Shown piece by piece: positions 13,559 to 34,272 of a DNA stretch of 48,335 nucleotides. A program made the translations under genes and the position numbers. This DNA is from a virus. Taxonomy: Duplodnaviria; Heunggongvirae; Uroviricota; Caudoviricetes. The stretch is taken from the IMG/VR virus record IMGVR_UViG_3300000292_000047. One strand, given 5' to 3'. Position 1 is the first letter of the stretch, and the number at the start of each line of letters is the position of its first letter. The notes under the pieces are model-generated. The model was given only the letters and a program-made list of their open reading frames with translations. It was not told the DNA's origin and searched no databases.

Positions 13559-13750
13559 ATGACAAACCTACCCCATGACTATTACGTCAACCTCGTAAAG
13601 ATCCTTCTCAAGAAAGCCTCATACGCCGATAAATTCCGCCTGGCTGAAATCATCGAGCGCGAAGCTATGCGCATCGCCAGCAACGATAACGCTGTTTCTG
13701 ACGCAAAAATCTCCCTCGTAACCAAAGTTGTTATGGGAGGTGCAAAATGA
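13559..13750 (+). CDS. Small protein translationally coupled to antirepressor
   Basis: 63 aa; stop overlaps ant start (ATGA). Confidence 0.45.
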   Translation: MTNLPHDYYVNLVKILLKKASYADKFRLAEIIEREAMRIASNDNAVSDAKISLVTKVVMGGAK

Positions 13751-14898
13751 AAACGCTTCCGATCGTTAACACCCTACAGCCTATCCTGCATAATCAGATT
13801 CCAGTAATCACAACTGAGCTACTCGCCCGCCTTTATGGAACAGAAGCAATCCGTATACAGCAAAATCACCATGAAAATAAAACTCGGTTCATTGAGGGGA
13901 AGCACTTCTTTAAAGCTGTTGGTGATGAACTCAAAAATTTGCGACTAGTTTTAAACGAGTCACAAAATGAGGTGCAAATTTCCCCCAAAACTCGCTCTCT
14001 CATCCTCTGGACAGAACGCGGGGCTGCACGTCACGCCAAAATGCTTGAAACTAACCAAGCGTGGGATGTGTTCGAACGGCTGGAAGACTGCTATTTCAAC
14101 CAGAACGCGCAAACGGCCGCGACCGTTACCGTCTCGCCAAACAATCCTCGTGAGGTTGTCGATACGCTCAACGCCAAACCGATGTTTTACATTAAGGTGT
14201 GCAACAACGAGCCACTCACAACCTCAGCCGATGTTGCCCAGGCATTCAGCACCACAAACAATTCCATCGTTATGGCCATCGATGCGTTACGCATTCCTCG
14301 TACAGCTGCGGCACGTCATTTCTTTAAAGAGCAACGACCGCTGGAAGGAAGCGACCGCGAAATAACAATCTATCGCATGACAAAAGACGGATTTACCTTG
14401 CTCATGGAAAGTATCGACGGTCCAGGCGTGAAAGATATCAAGCTGGCCTACATTGAAGCCTTTAACGCTATCAGCAGCGTGTTAAAAACACAGTACGAGC
14501 GTGATCTGGCTAAACGACTGTACCAGGAAAAAACGATTATCCGCGCGGCAACAGAGCATAATCGGCTATTAACAGAACCGAAATACAGGAAGGAACTAAT
14601 CAAGGAGTTTGACAAGGCAACAGGGAAAACCAAAGCGGCGCTAAATCTGCCAGCAATGACTCAGGAAAATGTGATATCAGCCTTACTTCTTGATCTGCTC
14701 AGAAACGCCAGAGCACTTATCAGCTTTGACGAAAACCTGAATCCTCAGCTCAAGCTACTACCACCGACAGGCAAAGTAGTCGACCAGGCTGATCACAACA
14801 GCATACTCAGCGTACTGGATGCAAACCTGCCAGCCAGGACACTACAGGATCTGATAAAAACATGTGCTGATAAGCTGGCACAGAAGAGCAGACCATAA
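13747..14898 (+). CDS. Antirepressor-type regulatory protein (ORF6N-like N-terminus + Rha domain)
   Basis: 383 aa; ITIYRMTKDGFTLLMESIDGPGVKDIKLAYIEAFN matches Rha pattern; GGAGG SD. Confidence 0.7.
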   Translation: MKTLPIVNTLQPILHNQIPVITTELLARLYGTEAIRIQQNHHENKTRFIEGKHFFKAVGDELKNLRLVLNESQNEVQISPKTRSLILWTERGAARHAKMLETNQAWDVFERLEDCYFNQNAQTAATVTVSPNNPREVVDTLNAKPMFYIKVCNNEPLTTSADVAQAFSTTNNSIVMAIDALRIPRTAAARHFFKEQRPLEGSDREITIYRMTKDGFTLLMESIDGPGVKDIKLAYIEAFNAISSVLKTQYERDLAKRLYQEKTIIRAATEHNRLLTEPKYRKELIKEFDKATGKTKAALNLPAMTQENVISALLLDLLRNARALISFDENLNPQLKLLPPTGKVVDQADHNSILSVLDANLPARTLQDLIKTCADKLAQKSRP

Positions 14899-27830: not shown

Positions 27831-28832
27831 TTAATACCCATTAATTACTCTTCGGACATCAATCGAGGTGGTATAACCACTAGTCCCAATTGAATGCACA
27901 GCTTTCGATATAAGATATTTTCCAGAAAATGAACCGAATCCCTCCAGATTTATAGTTACACCAGCTACCAATCTGGTGTCTCCAACCAATACTAAAGATC
28001 CGGTATTTTGATATCTATTTTTAAGCCGCAAAGCAGCCTTTGCCTTACGTTTTGCTTCATCTAAATTAGCTACCAGTTTTCTTATCTTAAGATTCGACCC
28101 TTCTTCTACGGATGGATCTACCCAAGTATACGAAAGCGACTTTCTTTTTTTAGGTACGCGATATTTGCACGTGCAACTTTTATACAAATCTGTAGATTGT
28201 GTGCTAAAGCTATATCTGATTATCTCATCAATACCTAACGTAAGCGTAGCGATAGGATCTTTTTGCTCAAACATCTCTTGAGCAAATATTATTAATTGGC
28301 TATCAGTGACCTTTAACGACAACCCTTCATCCTGGCAAAGTCGATGGAGAAATTTTAAATCGCTTTCCTCCATTTGATCTTCACGCGCATAATATGGATT
28401 ACTATCACCATCAATAAGAAACAACAGTTCAAGGTTAGCTAATTTAGCTATAGAAGTTGCTATATCTTTAAGAGTTGTTTTTTCCCATGCATTACTTTTT
28501 AAATCACGTCTAATGCCTGATGAAACAGGAACAGAAACAGCAGTTACCTCAACCACAGAAGGTGGTCCAGAGCAAGTTATGCCATCTACCTGGAATTTCC
28601 CGCACTCAAGGACGATTTGATTTATAGGCTTAAAGCTCAAATCAATAAAATCACCCTTTTTAGGTGTCCAGTCTCCAGACCATTTCCCATCATCATTTTT
28701 TAATATAATAGAAATATCATCGACCTGACCATCTTCATTATCTGTATAAGACATTGACAAAACATCAGGTGACATATGAGCGGTAATATTTACATTCTGA
28801 TATATAACATCAAAAAGCGTTTTACGTAACAC
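27831..28832 (-). CDS. Late control D-like tail/baseplate hub protein
   Basis: 333 aa following tape measure and X-like gene. Confidence 0.6.
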   Translation of the reverse strand: MLRKTLFDVIYQNVNITAHMSPDVLSMSYTDNEDGQVDDISIILKNDDGKWSGDWTPKKGDFIDLSFKPINQIVLECGKFQVDGITCSGPPSVVEVTAVSVPVSSGIRRDLKSNAWEKTTLKDIATSIAKLANLELLFLIDGDSNPYYAREDQMEESDLKFLHRLCQDEGLSLKVTDSQLIIFAQEMFEQKDPIATLTLGIDEIIRYSFSTQSTDLYKSCTCKYRVPKKRKSLSYTWVDPSVEEGSNLKIRKLVANLDEAKRKAKAALRLKNRYQNTGSLVLVGDTRLVAGVTINLEGFGSFSGKYLISKAVHSIGTSGYTTSIDVRRVINGY

Positions 28833-29040
28833 TATTGCGTCTCCACGGAGGAAAATTGTTTACTGATATTGGCATAACCGGAGCATCAGGAACTTTAAGA
28901 ATAATTCCCGCAGAAAAAAGCACCGTAAAGCGGTGCTCAGTATTAGCATCAATAAGAAGATAAGACAGGTACTCATTACCATACAACTTTAAAGCGATAC
29001 TATCCCATGAGTCCCCTTGAACCGTTCTATAATCATCCAA
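28822..29040 (-). CDS. Tail protein X-like (LysM-like)
   Basis: 72 aa; DSWDSIALKLYGNEYLSYLLIDAN LysM-like. Confidence 0.55.
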   Translation of the reverse strand: MDDYRTVQGDSWDSIALKLYGNEYLSYLLIDANTEHRFTVLFSAGIILKVPDAPVMPISVNNFPPWRRNSVT

Positions 29041-31825
29041 AACTTAATCTCCGTTGTTGGAACATATGAGCACTCAATTTCTTCTCAAAATCAGAATATC
29101 CCGCATCTAATGCTCTTTTAGCTGCTGCCTCAGTTTCCTTTGGTGAACCAGCCGGAAGATTGATTACAGGTGAATAGGTTATTCCACCAGTCACAGCGTT
29201 AACGTTCTGGCGAGGTCCAGAAGTCCCAGCGGCAGATATCCCGTGAGGTGATAAATTTGATTGCCCGAACTTGCTTGCTATTGCATTCTGTAAGCTGTTA
29301 TTCCTGCTAACACCTGATGCCAGAGTAGTCATTATTGCACCACCTGACTTTGTTAGCTGTGAGAATGGACCTTTTTTCGCGTCAGAGAACGGTAAATACT
29401 CACGTACAGAAGAAAAAACGCCTTTCACTTCATTAATTAAAGCATTTGCTTTTGATTTTATCCCAGTGATTAACGTCTCAATTATTTTTGCGCCTGACTC
29501 ACTCCAGTTTATTCCAGATAAATAAGTCGTTACAGATTGGAATGCTCTTATAAAGAGTCCAACTGGTGAAAAACGCATAAAAACAGATACCAGTGTATCT
29601 ATGATTTTCTTTCCTGTTTCGCTCCAGTTAATGCCAGAAAGGTAATTTGTTGTAATTTTAAATGCTTTAATTAAGAACGGAAGCGGAGACATCCATTTAA
29701 AAGCACTAATTAATGTACTGTAAATTCTTACTCCTGCCGAACTCCAGTTTATGTTGGAAAGATAATCCCATGCTTTACCAAACATAGATATAATCCATCC
29801 ATTGAGGTCAAAGTTTAAGATAAAGTTTTTTATAGCCTCAAATGATTTAACTGTATATTCCTTAACAGAAGGCCAAACTCTGACAGCATAATCTCTGATC
29901 TTATCCCAATTCTGATAGAGCAATATTCCTGCGGCAACCAGCGCAGATATAGCCATCTGAATCCACCCGAAGGGTGTTAGCTTTGTCGCTACAGATAAAG
30001 CCAGCATAGCTACCCTACACGCTATAACCACACTTTTCATGGTTAGAAACGCACCTGCCGCCATCACTATCTGAGACACAAAATTGGGGTTGTTAGCTAC
30101 AAATTCACTAATTTTTGTAATCAGCGGAACCAAAACACTAAGCGCGGCATTCAAAGCAGGTTGCAAGGCCTGACCAAAACTTAATGATGCATTGCTAGCC
30201 TGAATACGTAATTGTTTCAATCGCTCCGCATTATCTTTCGTTATGTTGGCAAAATCGCGGTCAATAACAGCACTTCCAGCTCCAAGAGATGTTGCTTTGA
30301 TTCTCTGGTATTCCTTCCAGTTTTGAATCATCGGACGAACAAAGTTCTGAACCTGCATATCGCCAAATAGTTCACCAAGTAACTTCTGATCTCCGTTCTT
30401 AGTCATTTTCATGACAGAATGCATTGCAGCTTCGAATGGATTCTTCCCTTTTTTCTGCGCTGTTGTAACAATTTTATATAAATCTACACCGAAATTTTTC
30501 TTTGCTTTTTTTAGTGTTTCAGGGGAAAGTATTTTTGCCAAAAAGTTGTTCATATTATTAGCAGCCTCATCCGAAGTTGCAGCCCCCTTGCGAGCTATCT
30601 GCAAAGCTGCACCCATCGTCGCGGCTGCTTCTTTACCTCCCATTTTTAATGCCTGGAACTGAGCACCAAGCACAGGAAGATTTTTGGCCATATCTTTAAA
30701 TTCAAAGTTCCCCTCTTTCCCTGCCTGAACCAGAATCCCCATTGCAGACTTCATTTGAGATGGATCAATCTTCAATGAGTCACTTAATGTAAATGATGCT
30801 TTCGAGACATCGAGGATATCAGAGCCAGTAGCTGTAGCTGTTCGCCCAATAGTTAGTAGATTCGCCTGAGCCTCTTTATAATCCTGCCCAGCAGCGACGA
30901 GAAAACCCTGAGCGGCCTGAATATCAGATGCAAACTGGTTGGTAGCCGTTCCGGTAACAAGCATCGCCTGCCCCATCGCCTGAACTTCTTCCGGCTTCAT
31001 ATCTGCCGTAAGACCAATCATTTTGTTTTCACGATTGAAATTTGCTGCATTGTTAGCAGCAGCAAATGCACCAGCCGCTACAGCACCAGTTTGTAATCCT
31101 GACCTTACAAGTTGACTCTTTGCCTCACCAAGATGCTCTCGCTTCAATTCACGCTGCCTTTCCAACGCGCGGTTTAACTCCTCCTGAGCACGTTTTACTG
31201 CAAGAACATTTTTCCGTGCTTCAGCCAACGCATTTTTATAGCTGTTAATTTTATCAATACGTTGTTTTTCTAATGCCCGGTTAAGTTCCTCCTGCTGTTT
31301 TTTCACTTGCTGAACATTTGCTCTGGCTAAAGCCAAAGCCGTTCTGTAGCGGTTAACCTGCTCAACGCTACGGGCCTGAGCCTCACGATTACGATCAATG
31401 CTGGCTTTAAGCTCTTTCTCTCTTGAGGCCAAAGCTCTGGCAGATGTATCAGCTCCCTGATAGGCAGACTTTAAAGCGGCCAGTTCTTCACGCTGAGAAC
31501 GTAGTGATGCTCGTAAATTTGATGAATGTGTTTTTGCCTTCTCAAAGTCACGAAGCATCGCTCTGGTTGGATTGGCCGTGTTTTTTATTTGCTTCTGTAA
31601 CTCTTCAACGCGAGCGGCAGCTTTATGATATTCGAGGGCAGTCTGTCCAACCTTTACTTTTACAGATTGTAGCTTTTGAATTTCCCCATGTTCTTTCGTT
31701 AATCCAGCAAGCTCTGCATTTAATTTAGCAACAGCCTGATTAGCTGTAGTAAAACTTTTGGGGAGAGAGGCGGCAACTTTGCCGCCAATTTCAAAAGCCA
31801 GCTTAAAGTTCTTATTGCTGGCCAT
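29033..31825 (-). CDS. Tail tape measure protein
   Basis: 930 aa, coiled-coil rich, hydrophobic central segments. Confidence 0.85.
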   Translation of the reverse strand: MASNKNFKLAFEIGGKVAASLPKSFTTANQAVAKLNAELAGLTKEHGEIQKLQSVKVKVGQTALEYHKAAARVEELQKQIKNTANPTRAMLRDFEKAKTHSSNLRASLRSQREELAALKSAYQGADTSARALASREKELKASIDRNREAQARSVEQVNRYRTALALARANVQQVKKQQEELNRALEKQRIDKINSYKNALAEARKNVLAVKRAQEELNRALERQRELKREHLGEAKSQLVRSGLQTGAVAAGAFAAANNAANFNRENKMIGLTADMKPEEVQAMGQAMLVTGTATNQFASDIQAAQGFLVAAGQDYKEAQANLLTIGRTATATGSDILDVSKASFTLSDSLKIDPSQMKSAMGILVQAGKEGNFEFKDMAKNLPVLGAQFQALKMGGKEAAATMGAALQIARKGAATSDEAANNMNNFLAKILSPETLKKAKKNFGVDLYKIVTTAQKKGKNPFEAAMHSVMKMTKNGDQKLLGELFGDMQVQNFVRPMIQNWKEYQRIKATSLGAGSAVIDRDFANITKDNAERLKQLRIQASNASLSFGQALQPALNAALSVLVPLITKISEFVANNPNFVSQIVMAAGAFLTMKSVVIACRVAMLALSVATKLTPFGWIQMAISALVAAGILLYQNWDKIRDYAVRVWPSVKEYTVKSFEAIKNFILNFDLNGWIISMFGKAWDYLSNINWSSAGVRIYSTLISAFKWMSPLPFLIKAFKITTNYLSGINWSETGKKIIDTLVSVFMRFSPVGLFIRAFQSVTTYLSGINWSESGAKIIETLITGIKSKANALINEVKGVFSSVREYLPFSDAKKGPFSQLTKSGGAIMTTLASGVSRNNSLQNAIASKFGQSNLSPHGISAAGTSGPRQNVNAVTGGITYSPVINLPAGSPKETEAAAKRALDAGYSDFEKKLSAHMFQQRRLSFG

Positions 31826-31830
31826 TAGTA

Positions 31831-32261
31831 TTAATCCTCATTAAACACGTCAATCCATGCGACGATTCGCCTCAACCGAAGCGAAAGCCAGTAGGATATA
31901 GGTGTTGATTGAGATGATTGAGATAGAGAACTCGCGGCCCTCATTATTTGCTTATCAATAGGTTTTTGTTCATCAAAACCTACGAGAGCAAAAAATTCTG
32001 TACCTTTTGACAAACTTTAACAAAGTCTTTCGCTGGTAATCCATTCAGATACTCTATTGGACGACCAATACAGCGAGCAGCCAAGGCTGCATGGACTTTA
32101 TTATCAAGTGATGTTTGAACTGAAACATGCCCTTGAGATTGCAGTAAGTCAGATACCTCTAAAATATCACTGCCTTTTAGGTTGTCTAAATCAAGGTTGA
32201 GTTCAGTCACCGGCTCAAAGTCTTCAAAACGATATTCTTTACTTAATTTAACGGTTTCCAT
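31831..32261 (-). CDS. Tail assembly chaperone pair (E-like 31980-32261; E+E'-like fusion via -1 frameshift extending to 31831)
   Basis: Slippery TTTTTTG (minus strand; plus 31989-31995) just before E-frame stop; overlapping downstream ORF in -1 frame. Confidence 0.6.
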
Positions 32262-32270
32262 TTTGTCACC

Positions 32271-32792
32271 TTATAAACCTAAATCATCACGAACGCTTTT
32301 TAATATATCTTCACCATCAAAGATACAAATAAAGTTCAACTTATCAATTTCCAGGACTTCTTTTCCATCAATAAATAATTTGATATAGAGAACTTCAAAT
32401 TCATTCTCTGAATCAGTAGCCTTTGCCACCTGTAGCGAACCTAAATCCAGTTTTTTAGGGTTTAGCTTCATTGAAGCCCGAATAGGAACCGTTTTATATT
32501 TTCCTGTTCCTGCATCATAAACCTGCTGGCTACCGCGAAAATCTACCTGATGCGATGAGGATAGAAATAATTTTGTACCAGCAGAGGTCAGAGTTCGCCA
32601 TTTAAGAGAGACAGTCATTGGTTTGAAATGCCCCAGCGTTCCGCTCTCAAGCTCTCCAGCGATACCTGCACCACTAACAGTTTCTGTCATCATCTCAATT
32701 GATGGCAGCTTTGCGTCAGCAACACCGATAATACGGTTTCCTTCACCGTATACTGTAAAGTTAATAAGTCTCTCAGGAATTTGATTGCTCAA
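32271..32792 (-). CDS. Tail tube protein (FII-like)
   Basis: 173 aa; TTG start with AGGAGG SD; between sheath and chaperones. Confidence 0.7.
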   Translation of the reverse strand: MSNQIPERLINFTVYGEGNRIIGVADAKLPSIEMMTETVSGAGIAGELESGTLGHFKPMTVSLKWRTLTSAGTKLFLSSSHQVDFRGSQQVYDAGTGKYKTVPIRASMKLNPKKLDLGSLQVAKATDSENEFEVLYIKLFIDGKEVLEIDKLNFICIFDGEDILKSVRDDLGL

Positions 32793-32808: not shown

Positions 32809-34272
32809 TTATTCAGAAAACAAGTTCAGCAGATAATCAGGATTATATTCCATGACGAACTCTATATCTCTGGCAGGTGAGAATGGTGTCATTTTCACAT
32901 GGAATTTAACAATCCCGTCCATCAATGACGTAATCGTGTTTTCAGACTGATCAAAGGTAACAACACCACCTGCAATATCCTGATTACCAGTGAGGCCGTT
33001 AAGCCAAATATTCGCACTAGTAACAATCGATTCAATTAATCGACGGTTTGCAGGATTGTCTATTTTTGACCAATGCGAAAGAATTAACGTATTACCCACC
33101 CAGTTAAACATACGTCGGCAAACACGAAATGCGTCTTTGGGGTCTGTAGATGTTGGATAAATAGCATTACGGTTTCCCCATGATTTCCAACCATCAAAAT
33201 TAAGGCTTGTTACAATCCCCTGTCCATTTAAGTAGTTTGCCTGGCTAATGTTAAGCCATACCTCACTGCCATCTTTACGTACAGCACCGTCCATCTGTAG
33301 TTTTATATTTGACGGAGAACGTGATGGAATATCACCATACTGACTATCCAGCAAGCATGTTGCTGCCGCTAAATGGGTTGAGTGATGGTAAATATTGTCA
33401 CCAAGTTTCACCATCGGCCAGCACACTGTCTGGTTAGCTGCCATATGATTATTGTTCTGCTTCCATTCAGGAACAGCAGAATAATCACTGATAGTAGATT
33501 TATCAGTCGGCGCATCGGTGATAGCTTCTGCTTTGAACAATTCACTAATCAGCGCAGCTTTAGCCGCCATTAGCTGGCCAACTTCACTATCAGAACTAAA
33601 TCCAGGCGCAATCACTTGTCCTGGAACTAGTTTGAAGCGGGGATAAACATCCGACAGTAACTCAAGCCCCGTATTCGCTTTAGTGTTGGAATCCACACCA
33701 CCAATAATATCGTTTTTAGTTACAGCCCCGGGATCAAGATGCGTATAACTAACCTTAAGAGTGGCGTCTTTTTCAGTAATTTTTCCTCCGCTAATAGCGG
33801 TAATGACCGTATAGCCATTATCATCCAGCGCCAGTACATAATCTGTATCAACCGTTAACCCTGGAGAATCACCATCTGCTTTTTTCACAACAACAGATTT
33901 ATATAAGACACCATCGTTAGAGAGCGTACCTTTCCCGCCAGAAAGTTTTACTACCTCATCAGTTACGTCTTTCTTATGCTTTGCTGGATCAAGCACATTG
34001 ATAAATACAACTGGCGCAACACCATATATTCCAAATGCGACTTTAATTACTTCGCTTAAAGTATATTTCTCGAAGTTTGTGCTATATCCTATTTTAGATA
34101 CGGCCTCTGCGTATGTATAAGCAATGATAGGTTTATTTACCGCTGAGGCTGGATCTTCTAACTGATTAACAGGAGTTGTACCAAATGCGACAATCAACCC
34201 AGCACTAACTTGTACTGGAGGAGTTATAGATGTAGCCAGCTCAGATATATAAATACCGTGGCGATATCCCAT
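32809..34272 (-). CDS. Contractile tail sheath protein (FI-like)
   Basis: 487 aa; position and size. Confidence 0.8.
   Translation of the reverse strand: MGYRHGIYISELATSITPPVQVSAGLIVAFGTTPVNQLEDPASAVNKPIIAYTYAEAVSKIGYSTNFEKYTLSEVIKVAFGIYGVAPVVFINVLDPAKHKKDVTDEVVKLSGGKGTLSNDGVLYKSVVVKKADGDSPGLTVDTDYVLALDDNGYTVITAISGGKITEKDATLKVSYTHLDPGAVTKNDIIGGVDSNTKANTGLELLSDVYPRFKLVPGQVIAPGFSSDSEVGQLMAAKAALISELFKAEAITDAPTDKSTISDYSAVPEWKQNNNHMAANQTVCWPMVKLGDNIYHHSTHLAAATCLLDSQYGDIPSRSPSNIKLQMDGAVRKDGSEVWLNISQANYLNGQGIVTSLNFDGWKSWGNRNAIYPTSTDPKDAFRVCRRMFNWVGNTLILSHWSKIDNPANRRLIESIVTSANIWLNGLTGNQDIAGGVVTFDQSENTITSLMDGIVKFHVKMTPFSPARDIEFVMEYNPDYLLNLFSE

Follow-up and report, generated by a model that had tools for sequence, protein, structure and literature searches.

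A putative P2-type -1 frameshift site, T_TTT_TTG, in the gene for the tail assembly chaperone of an enterobacterial phage-plasmid

Long-tailed double-stranded DNA phages reportedly share a conserved class of frameshift in their tail assembly chaperone genes, described by Xu, Hendrix and Duda in 2004 and represented by lambda G/GT and P2 E/E+E'. In lambda, the slippery heptamer is G_GGA_AAG. Neither lambda product is found in the virion and the ratio of G to GT is important for tail assembly, with the shared domain binding the tape measure protein and the extension recruiting the tube subunit; the frequency of the shift fixes the ratio of the two products, at ~30:1 in lambda, and is 2-3 times higher in P2 (PMC5009743). 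The P2 shift occurs in the -1 direction at TTTTTTG, giving rise to the 91-aa E and the 142-aa E+E' proteins, and P2-like phages are reported to lack a downstream hairpin (PMC3091744). The RefSeq record of P2 carries a feature described as "site of -1 translational frameshift", and the 91- and 142-aa products could both be reconstructed. The annotation of Vibrio phage X29 (NC_024369; YP_009043921 / YP_009091831) likewise contains a curated joined CDS, "lambda gpGT analog", beside a "lambda gpG analog", with the join placed on the same TTTTTTG.

The locus analyzed here lies on the minus strand of a 48,335-nt virus sequence, IMG/VR record IMGVR_UViG_3300000292_000047, and "the window" below refers to this whole stretch. 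The genes are ordered sheath, tube, chaperone, -1 open reading frame (ORF) and tape measure, all on the minus strand, placing the chaperone pair between the tube and the tape measure. The sheath gene, of P2 FI type (32809-34272, minus strand), matches phrog_23 at E = 4e-95 and bears the RefSeq name 'phage tail sheath family protein', while the tail tube gene, of P2 FII type (32271-32792, minus strand), is situated directly upstream of the chaperone gene and matches PF04985 (Phage_tube) at E = 3.5e-44. The 930-aa tape measure protein is encoded at 29033-31825 (minus strand) and matches both PF10145 (PhageMin_Tail, E = 1e-20) and phrog_28 (E = 9e-109). Further downstream are genes for gpX-like, gpD, gpV spike, gpU, gpW, gpJ, gpI and tail fibre proteins, which is the composition of a P2-type tail, and the position of the chaperone pair is that seen in the FI-FII-E-E'-T order of the P2 FETUD tail operon. 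As a separate observation, phrog_55 gives the FII-type tube protein (32271-32792; L002, 1727-2248; L050, 1-374) the label 'head closure', as do the RefSeq entries for X29 and P2, and this looks like a propagated mislabel.

The zero-frame gene (31980-32261, minus strand), read from its ORF and from profile matches as the analogue of gpG and of P2 gpE, encodes a tail assembly chaperone of 93 aa. It starts with an ATG at 32261 that has an AAGGTGA Shine-Dalgarno sequence upstream, and it ends with a TAG at 31982-31980. The 3' end of the ORF reads CAG AAT TTT TTG CTC TCG TAG, and the codons AAT TTT TTG, encoding N-F-L, contain the slippery heptamer T_TTT_TTG (plus-strand positions 31989-31995, read on the minus strand). 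This is the sole TTTTTTG within the 93-codon ORF; it begins on a third codon base (index 266, phase 2), which is the X_XXY_YYZ phase, and lies two codons ahead of the TAG. The original prediction had put a minus-strand TTTTTTG at plus 31989-31995, a few codons before the stop of the 93-codon ORF, and had the -1 frame staying open to 31831. Its coordinates and description are confirmed as exact in every detail, the heptamer being in phase and exactly two codons before the stop, and the -1 frame closing with a TAA at 31833-31831.

From 32016 the -1 frame stays open as far as this TAA, a distance of 61 codons, 49 of which lie past the stop of the chaperone ORF. Within it the -1 extension, the analogue of the lambda T domain and of P2 E' (31831-31989, minus strand), was delimited by ORF reading and by a match to phrog_30074, and consists of 52 codons (ALVGFDEQ...VFNED) followed by the TAA. 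It is overlapped by no other gene, and the residues that a -1 shift would add after the TTG are ALVGFDEQKPIDKQIMRAASSLSQSSQSTPISYWLSLRLRRIVAWIDVFNED. The predicted fusion CDS is complement(join(31989..32261, 31831..31989)), encoding 143 aa, of which 91 residues are shared with the zero-frame product and 52 are new, with a predicted junction peptide of ...VQNFLALVGFDEQK. A +1 shift at the heptamer was rejected, as the +1 frame stops after two codons. The ATG of the tape measure gene (31825) is located 5 nt past the TAA of the -1 frame, and its GAGGA Shine-Dalgarno sequence (31835-31839) falls inside the last codons of the extension.

It is very likely, at a probability we would place at roughly 90%, that the product of the 93-codon gene is the assembly chaperone for a contractile tail of P2 type and that a -1 frameshift fusion is made from this gene, a reading based on sequence comparison. 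In this model, most ribosomes would stop at the TAG and release the 93-aa protein, while a minority would slip one base back on U_UUU_UUG with tRNA-Phe in the P site (UUU) and tRNA-Leu in the A site (UUG). Both tRNAs would re-pair, on UUU and UUU, and translation would continue through 52 codons in the -1 frame to generate a 143-aa fusion with the same 91 N-terminal residues. By analogy with lambda and P2, the shared domain would coat the tape measure and the rarer extension would recruit the tube protein; a fixed shift frequency would set the ratio of the two products, neither of which would be expected in the mature virion. We infer that the slip is ribosomal, and the binding partners proposed for the chaperone and the fusion follow presumptively from the same analogy. 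Going by lambda and P2, the shift probably has an efficiency of between a few per cent and roughly 10%, and the 143-aa fusion is probably essential.

The features of the class described by Xu, Hendrix and Duda are present at this locus: a location between the tube and the tape measure, an overlapping -1 frame without start signals of its own, and a conserved in-phase heptamer. The resemblance to P2 is close. The P2 E gene has TTTTTTG in the same phase and encoding the same F-L, within a shared K-V-x-x-F-L motif (AAG GTN NNN NNT TTT TTG), and its products of 91 and 142 aa almost match in size the 93 and 143 aa predicted here. Both loci are devoid of a significant downstream hairpin, and P2 E+E' scores 47.8 bits on Phage_TAC_7, the family to which the zero-frame product here very likely belongs as well. 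Set against this, the P2 and window fusions have no significant pairwise similarity (BLASTP E = 0.58), and the hhalign comparison of the family profile with P2 E+E' is marginal (71-136 against 66-132, with F-L in register and the alignment running on through the extension, E = 0.0093, probability 4%). The P2 stop lies six codons past the heptamer rather than two, and the P2 extension overlaps the start of T, whereas the window extension stops 5 nt before the tape measure ATG. The window element also differs from P2 in having a lambda-type head and plasmid replication.

Phage X29, in comparison, is a true homologue with 45% identity over G, an aligned F-L heptamer, a stop two codons later, a 57-codon -1 extension and the same TPIPYW motif. 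Lambda has another heptamer, and its chaperone is of a different family in which no sequence similarity can be detected; its tail is non-contractile and its T domain is longer.

Profile searches place the zero-frame product among known chaperones. The 93-aa protein matches phrog_3140, 'tail assembly chaperone', at E = 8.7e-43, and matches Pfam PF10109 (Phage_TAC_7) with 23.7 bits (E = 5.1e-5) over 78 of 79 profile positions, which is 1.3 bits under the 25-bit gathering threshold. All 19 lineage fusions match Phage_TAC_7 at E <= 0.01, the best at 3.3e-9, and four close relatives (P0001, P0007, P0008 and P0012) have precomputed PF10109 matches, so by transitivity the 93-aa product very likely belongs to Phage_TAC_7. 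The 143-aa fusion gives one continuous alignment to phrog_3140 across the junction (residues 1-137, E = 2.8e-47), and because it aligns in a single stretch, phrog_3140 must already contain joined members. The 52-residue extension alone matches phrog_30074 at E = 1.7e-31. The Pfam profile for P2 E', PF06528 (Phage_P2_GpE), scores 76.3 bits with P2 E+E' and has no match to the window fusion at E <= 0.1. Judging from these profiles, the zero-frame domain very likely belongs, if distantly, to the P2 gpE family, and any homology between the two extensions is tentative. A sequence search of the PDB with the family profile returned nothing relevant, and a single-sequence AlphaFold model, with a pLDDT of 39, was unusable.

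A comparative survey took in 51 loci, representing 18 distinct intact lineages with 30-100% identity to the window protein and a locus G+C content of 34-67%, among them a Paenibacillus prophage and viral contigs from metagenomes. A scan of genome contigs contributed one locus only, the Paenibacillus prophage, in which the heptamer is kept. An in-phase T_TTT_TTN occurs at the aligned F-L position in all 18 intact lineages, 2-15 codons before the stop, with a last base of G in 11, T in four, A in two and C in one. Each intact lineage has a -1 extension of 46-64 codons, and in nearly all lineages its end falls in the span from 25 nt ahead of the start of the first long downstream ORF to 50 nt beyond that start. 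Three redundant loci have larger gaps between the extension and this ORF, the true start having probably been missed by the long-ORF search. The +1 frame is mostly closed early among the surveyed lineages.

In an alignment of 19 fusions, Phe-90 is one of four invariant columns, and the residue preceding it varies (N, S, P, D, A or T), with a codon that always ends in T. Moreover, TTT-TTR is chosen even at 63-67% G+C, where local codon usage would lead to an expectation of 0.001-0.002. The joint probability of this codon choice over the 18 lineages, conditional on the encoded residues and on local codon usage, is ~1e-19.6, a figure to be read as an upper bound on significance since the lineages are related; set against this overstated independence is the saturation of synonymous sites at these lineage distances. 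On this comparative evidence the heptamer is conserved beyond amino-acid constraint.

Several apparent exceptions to heptamer conservation were set aside. L032 and L034 (IMG/VR UViG 2880355930_000001 and 2880350357_000007) are assemblies full of homopolymer indels in which the T domain and tape measure can still be made out, scattered over frames; L011 is a truncated element that has lost both its T domain and its tape measure; and the gene calls of P0014 and P0018 have been corrupted by frameshifts. In the indel-ridden contigs and proteins (L032, L034, P0014 and P0018), G, T and the tape measure are spread over several frames by assembly errors, of a kind that could mislead automated frameshift surveys.

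The -1 frame shows the properties of a translated sequence, which bears on two alternatives to a fusion. Every lineage can be aligned over the extension, which carries the motif G(L/F)...(L/M)S..T.TP(I/V).YW(L/M)..P(L/I)..L..W, and conservation of the peptide starts right at the heptamer, with the GF/GL motif, and reaches relatives of ~30% identity. In moderately diverged pairs, substitutions are concentrated at the third position of -1 frame codons, with counts at positions 1/2/3 of 9/6/21 between the window and L012, 14/6/29 between X29 and L033, and 22/8/32 between L039 and L044, which is a protein-coding pattern. A chance pairing of heptamer and open -1 frame, with the 154 nt ahead of the tape measure gene a non-coding spacer, would agree with the AT-richness of the region and its lack of annotation in RefSeq. 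We regard this as the least credible of the alternatives, with next to no chance of being correct, given that the -1 peptide is conserved with a third-position excess of substitutions and that conservation of the heptamer goes past amino-acid constraint. The arrangement is also rare within the window. When the 189 mechanical ORFs with 60 aa or more on the two strands were tested, just two had an in-phase XXXYYYZ among their final 20 codons together with a -1 extension of 40 codons or longer, namely the chaperone ORF and one nested shadow ORF. The second (13967-14365, plus strand, TTTAAAG) was rejected as an artefact of its nesting in a 383-codon gene (13747-14898), its "-1 frame" being that real gene, which leaves a single real ORF with the combination.

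A coding -1 frame might instead be a small gene in its own right, initiated separately at the TTG at 32013 or at an ATG near 31944, with no fusion being made, and several annotations lean this way: the ORF list contains a 60-codon TTG ORF at 31831-32013, the equivalent ORF of Pararheinheimera phage KLER1-1 is annotated as a separate hypothetical protein, and PHROGs places the extension in a family of its own, phrog_30074. The start signals, however, point elsewhere. The anti-Shine-Dalgarno duplexes of the TTG, 8 codons upstream of the shift site, and of the ATG, 15 codons downstream, amount to -0.9 and -0.7 kcal/mol respectively, and further candidates at +38 codons (TTG) and +47 codons (GTG) reach -1.5 and -3.1 kcal/mol, in comparison with a background median of -2.2 kcal/mol and with values between -3.9 and -10.9 kcal/mol at the real starts of ten neighbouring genes. 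No start position within the extension is conserved among the lineages, and the extension of L043 contains no ATG, GTG or TTG at all. Taken with the onset of conservation at the heptamer and the inclusion of joined members in phrog_3140, this makes separate initiation very improbable. The original prediction had named a downstream ORF with its own start and Shine-Dalgarno sequence as the observation that would count against it; the candidates in the extension, at -0.7 to -3.1 kcal/mol, fall outside the range of real starts. Its comparison of the arrangement to P2 E/E' and lambda G/GT is likewise supported, by position, family, heptamer conservation, coding signature and precedent, all of them read from sequence.

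The comparative data fit ribosomal and RNA-polymerase slippage alike. If RNA polymerase were to insert one U too many at the run of six T, a minority of mRNAs would carry the extension in frame and ribosomes would have no need to slip. The site is indeed a homopolymer run, and in 5 of the 18 lineages it is seven T long or longer, which suits a slipping polymerase at least as well as tRNA re-pairing; retention of the preceding T, which lengthens the run, is predicted by both models. Against this, the run is exactly six T in the window and in most lineages, and always in X_XXY_YYZ phase. The identical P2 site is described as a translational frameshift, as is reportedly also stated in the title of a 2002 paper by Christie et al. 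Moreover, efficient slippage by bacterial polymerase has been reported at runs of about 9 A or T (PMC5009743). Transcriptional slippage is therefore improbable in our estimation, if somewhat less so than either separate initiation or coincidence, and re-pairing of ribosome-bound tRNAs on the heptamer is the reading we retain.

Known frameshift sites can be boosted by flanking elements, as in E. coli dnaX (tau/gamma), which needs a strong upstream Shine-Dalgarno-like element and a downstream hairpin, and where the shifted frame terminates almost at once. The window locus resembles dnaX in the -1 slip on X_XXY_YYZ, in its enterobacterial host and in a possible Shine-Dalgarno-like AAGGT upstream, but it has weak stimulators or none, and its shifted frame would add a functional domain. 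Downstream, a possible weak hairpin (31958-31983, minus strand), with a 9-bp AU-rich stem and an 8-nt loop, begins 5 nt past the heptamer and includes the TAG. Compared with shuffled sequences, the window hairpin gives z values of -1.1 to -1.9, which are not significant, and it is absent from relatives of 69% identity; as it is neither significant nor conserved, it was rejected as a defining part of the site. Downstream structure with z < -2 was seen in only 4 of 23 distinct lineages, and an Rfam scan of 31600-32400 returned only a chance match to an lncRNA (E = 0.85). The X29-type Vibrio phages differ from the window lineage in this respect, with a strong GC-rich hairpin 8 nt past the same TTTTTTG at z -4.6 to -7.3. 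Together, the hairpins of the X29-type phages and of Pararheinheimera phage KLER1-1 (L002, 2779-2830; L033; L003, 2779-2830) span z -3.8 to -7.3. The occurrence of hairpins in these phages, and in neither the window lineage nor P2, suggests lineage-specific tuning of shift efficiency.

Upstream, the AAGGT (32002-32006, minus strand) lies 6 nt from the heptamer, has a duplex energy of -3.9 kcal/mol and is present in about half of the lineages, and P2 has AAGGTG 5 nt upstream of its own heptamer (L050, about 669-674). We do not claim an upstream stimulator here, as this patch coincides with conserved Lys-Val codons and is inseparable from protein constraint, and its spacing is short. A bare slippery heptamer, of the kind seen in P2, is the description that fits the site best.

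It is possible, although we hold the idea only tentatively and think it rather doubtful, that the F-L/TTTTTTN site is ancient and positionally homologous across the Phage_TAC_7 superfamily, with boosters that differ by lineage. P2 and the surveyed lineages are otherwise unalignable pairwise, and a site shared between them would therefore have been frozen while its surroundings diverged. The boosters would then comprise the hairpins of the X29-type phages and KLER1-1, none in P2 or the window phage-plasmid, and T7 or longer runs elsewhere, with some lineages conceivably making use of polymerase slippage. If this were true, the family would form a natural series on how shift efficiency can be tuned without changing the slippery site.

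The feature is of an ordinary and well-understood kind, with nothing biologically new for the G/GT paradigm. The case does provide an unusually clean comparative signal for the P2-type TTTTTTG site, and its value is a practical one, in the annotation of a widespread lineage. In the chaperone region, Yersinia phage vB_YpM_39 shares about 99% identity with the window, as do the E. coli phages vB_EcoM-613R2 and 473R2, and ~48-kb E. coli plasmids carrying RepA and ParA/ParB are about 99% identical to the window. Among 5426 complete E. coli genomes, 52 cover the structural half to 80% or more, with 167 of the 179 matching places on plasmids. In none of the lineage records that we inspected (GenBank phages OR545053 and ON470591, and RefSeq plasmid NZ_CP195051) is the fusion joined. 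GenBank names the 93-aa ORF 'hypothetical protein', while in RefSeq it is a 'phage tail assembly protein' and the 154 nt that follow carry no feature, and the protein database contains only 93-aa or indel-corrupted forms for the lineage. The E. coli and Yersinia phage-plasmid records would be put right by an added CDS, complement(join(31989..32261, 31831..31989)), flagged as ribosomal_slippage.

A further ORF in the neighbourhood (28822-29040, minus strand), of 72 codons with a TTG start, overlaps the end of the tape measure gene and has a weak match to Phage_tail_X (LysM-like; 21.1 bits, the cut-off being 22). OR545053 annotates this ORF, and RefSeq plasmid NZ_CP195051 has a 200-nt gap in its place, a probable second omission of annotation.

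The window as a whole (1-48335) is an apparently complete phage-plasmid of ~48 kb. Its first half is 99% identical to E. coli plasmids with repA, ParA and Rha/HTH regulators, and its virion module (21855-41974, minus strand) is a mosaic of a lambda-type head (capsid gpE, PF03864; a lambda-family portal; gpA terminase) and a P2-type contractile tail. The Yersinia pestis phages vB_YpM_39/41/44 are 97-99% identical to the window over the 1.2-kb region compared. The window also carries a single tRNA-Met gene, with anticodon CAT, at 1009-1084 on the minus strand.
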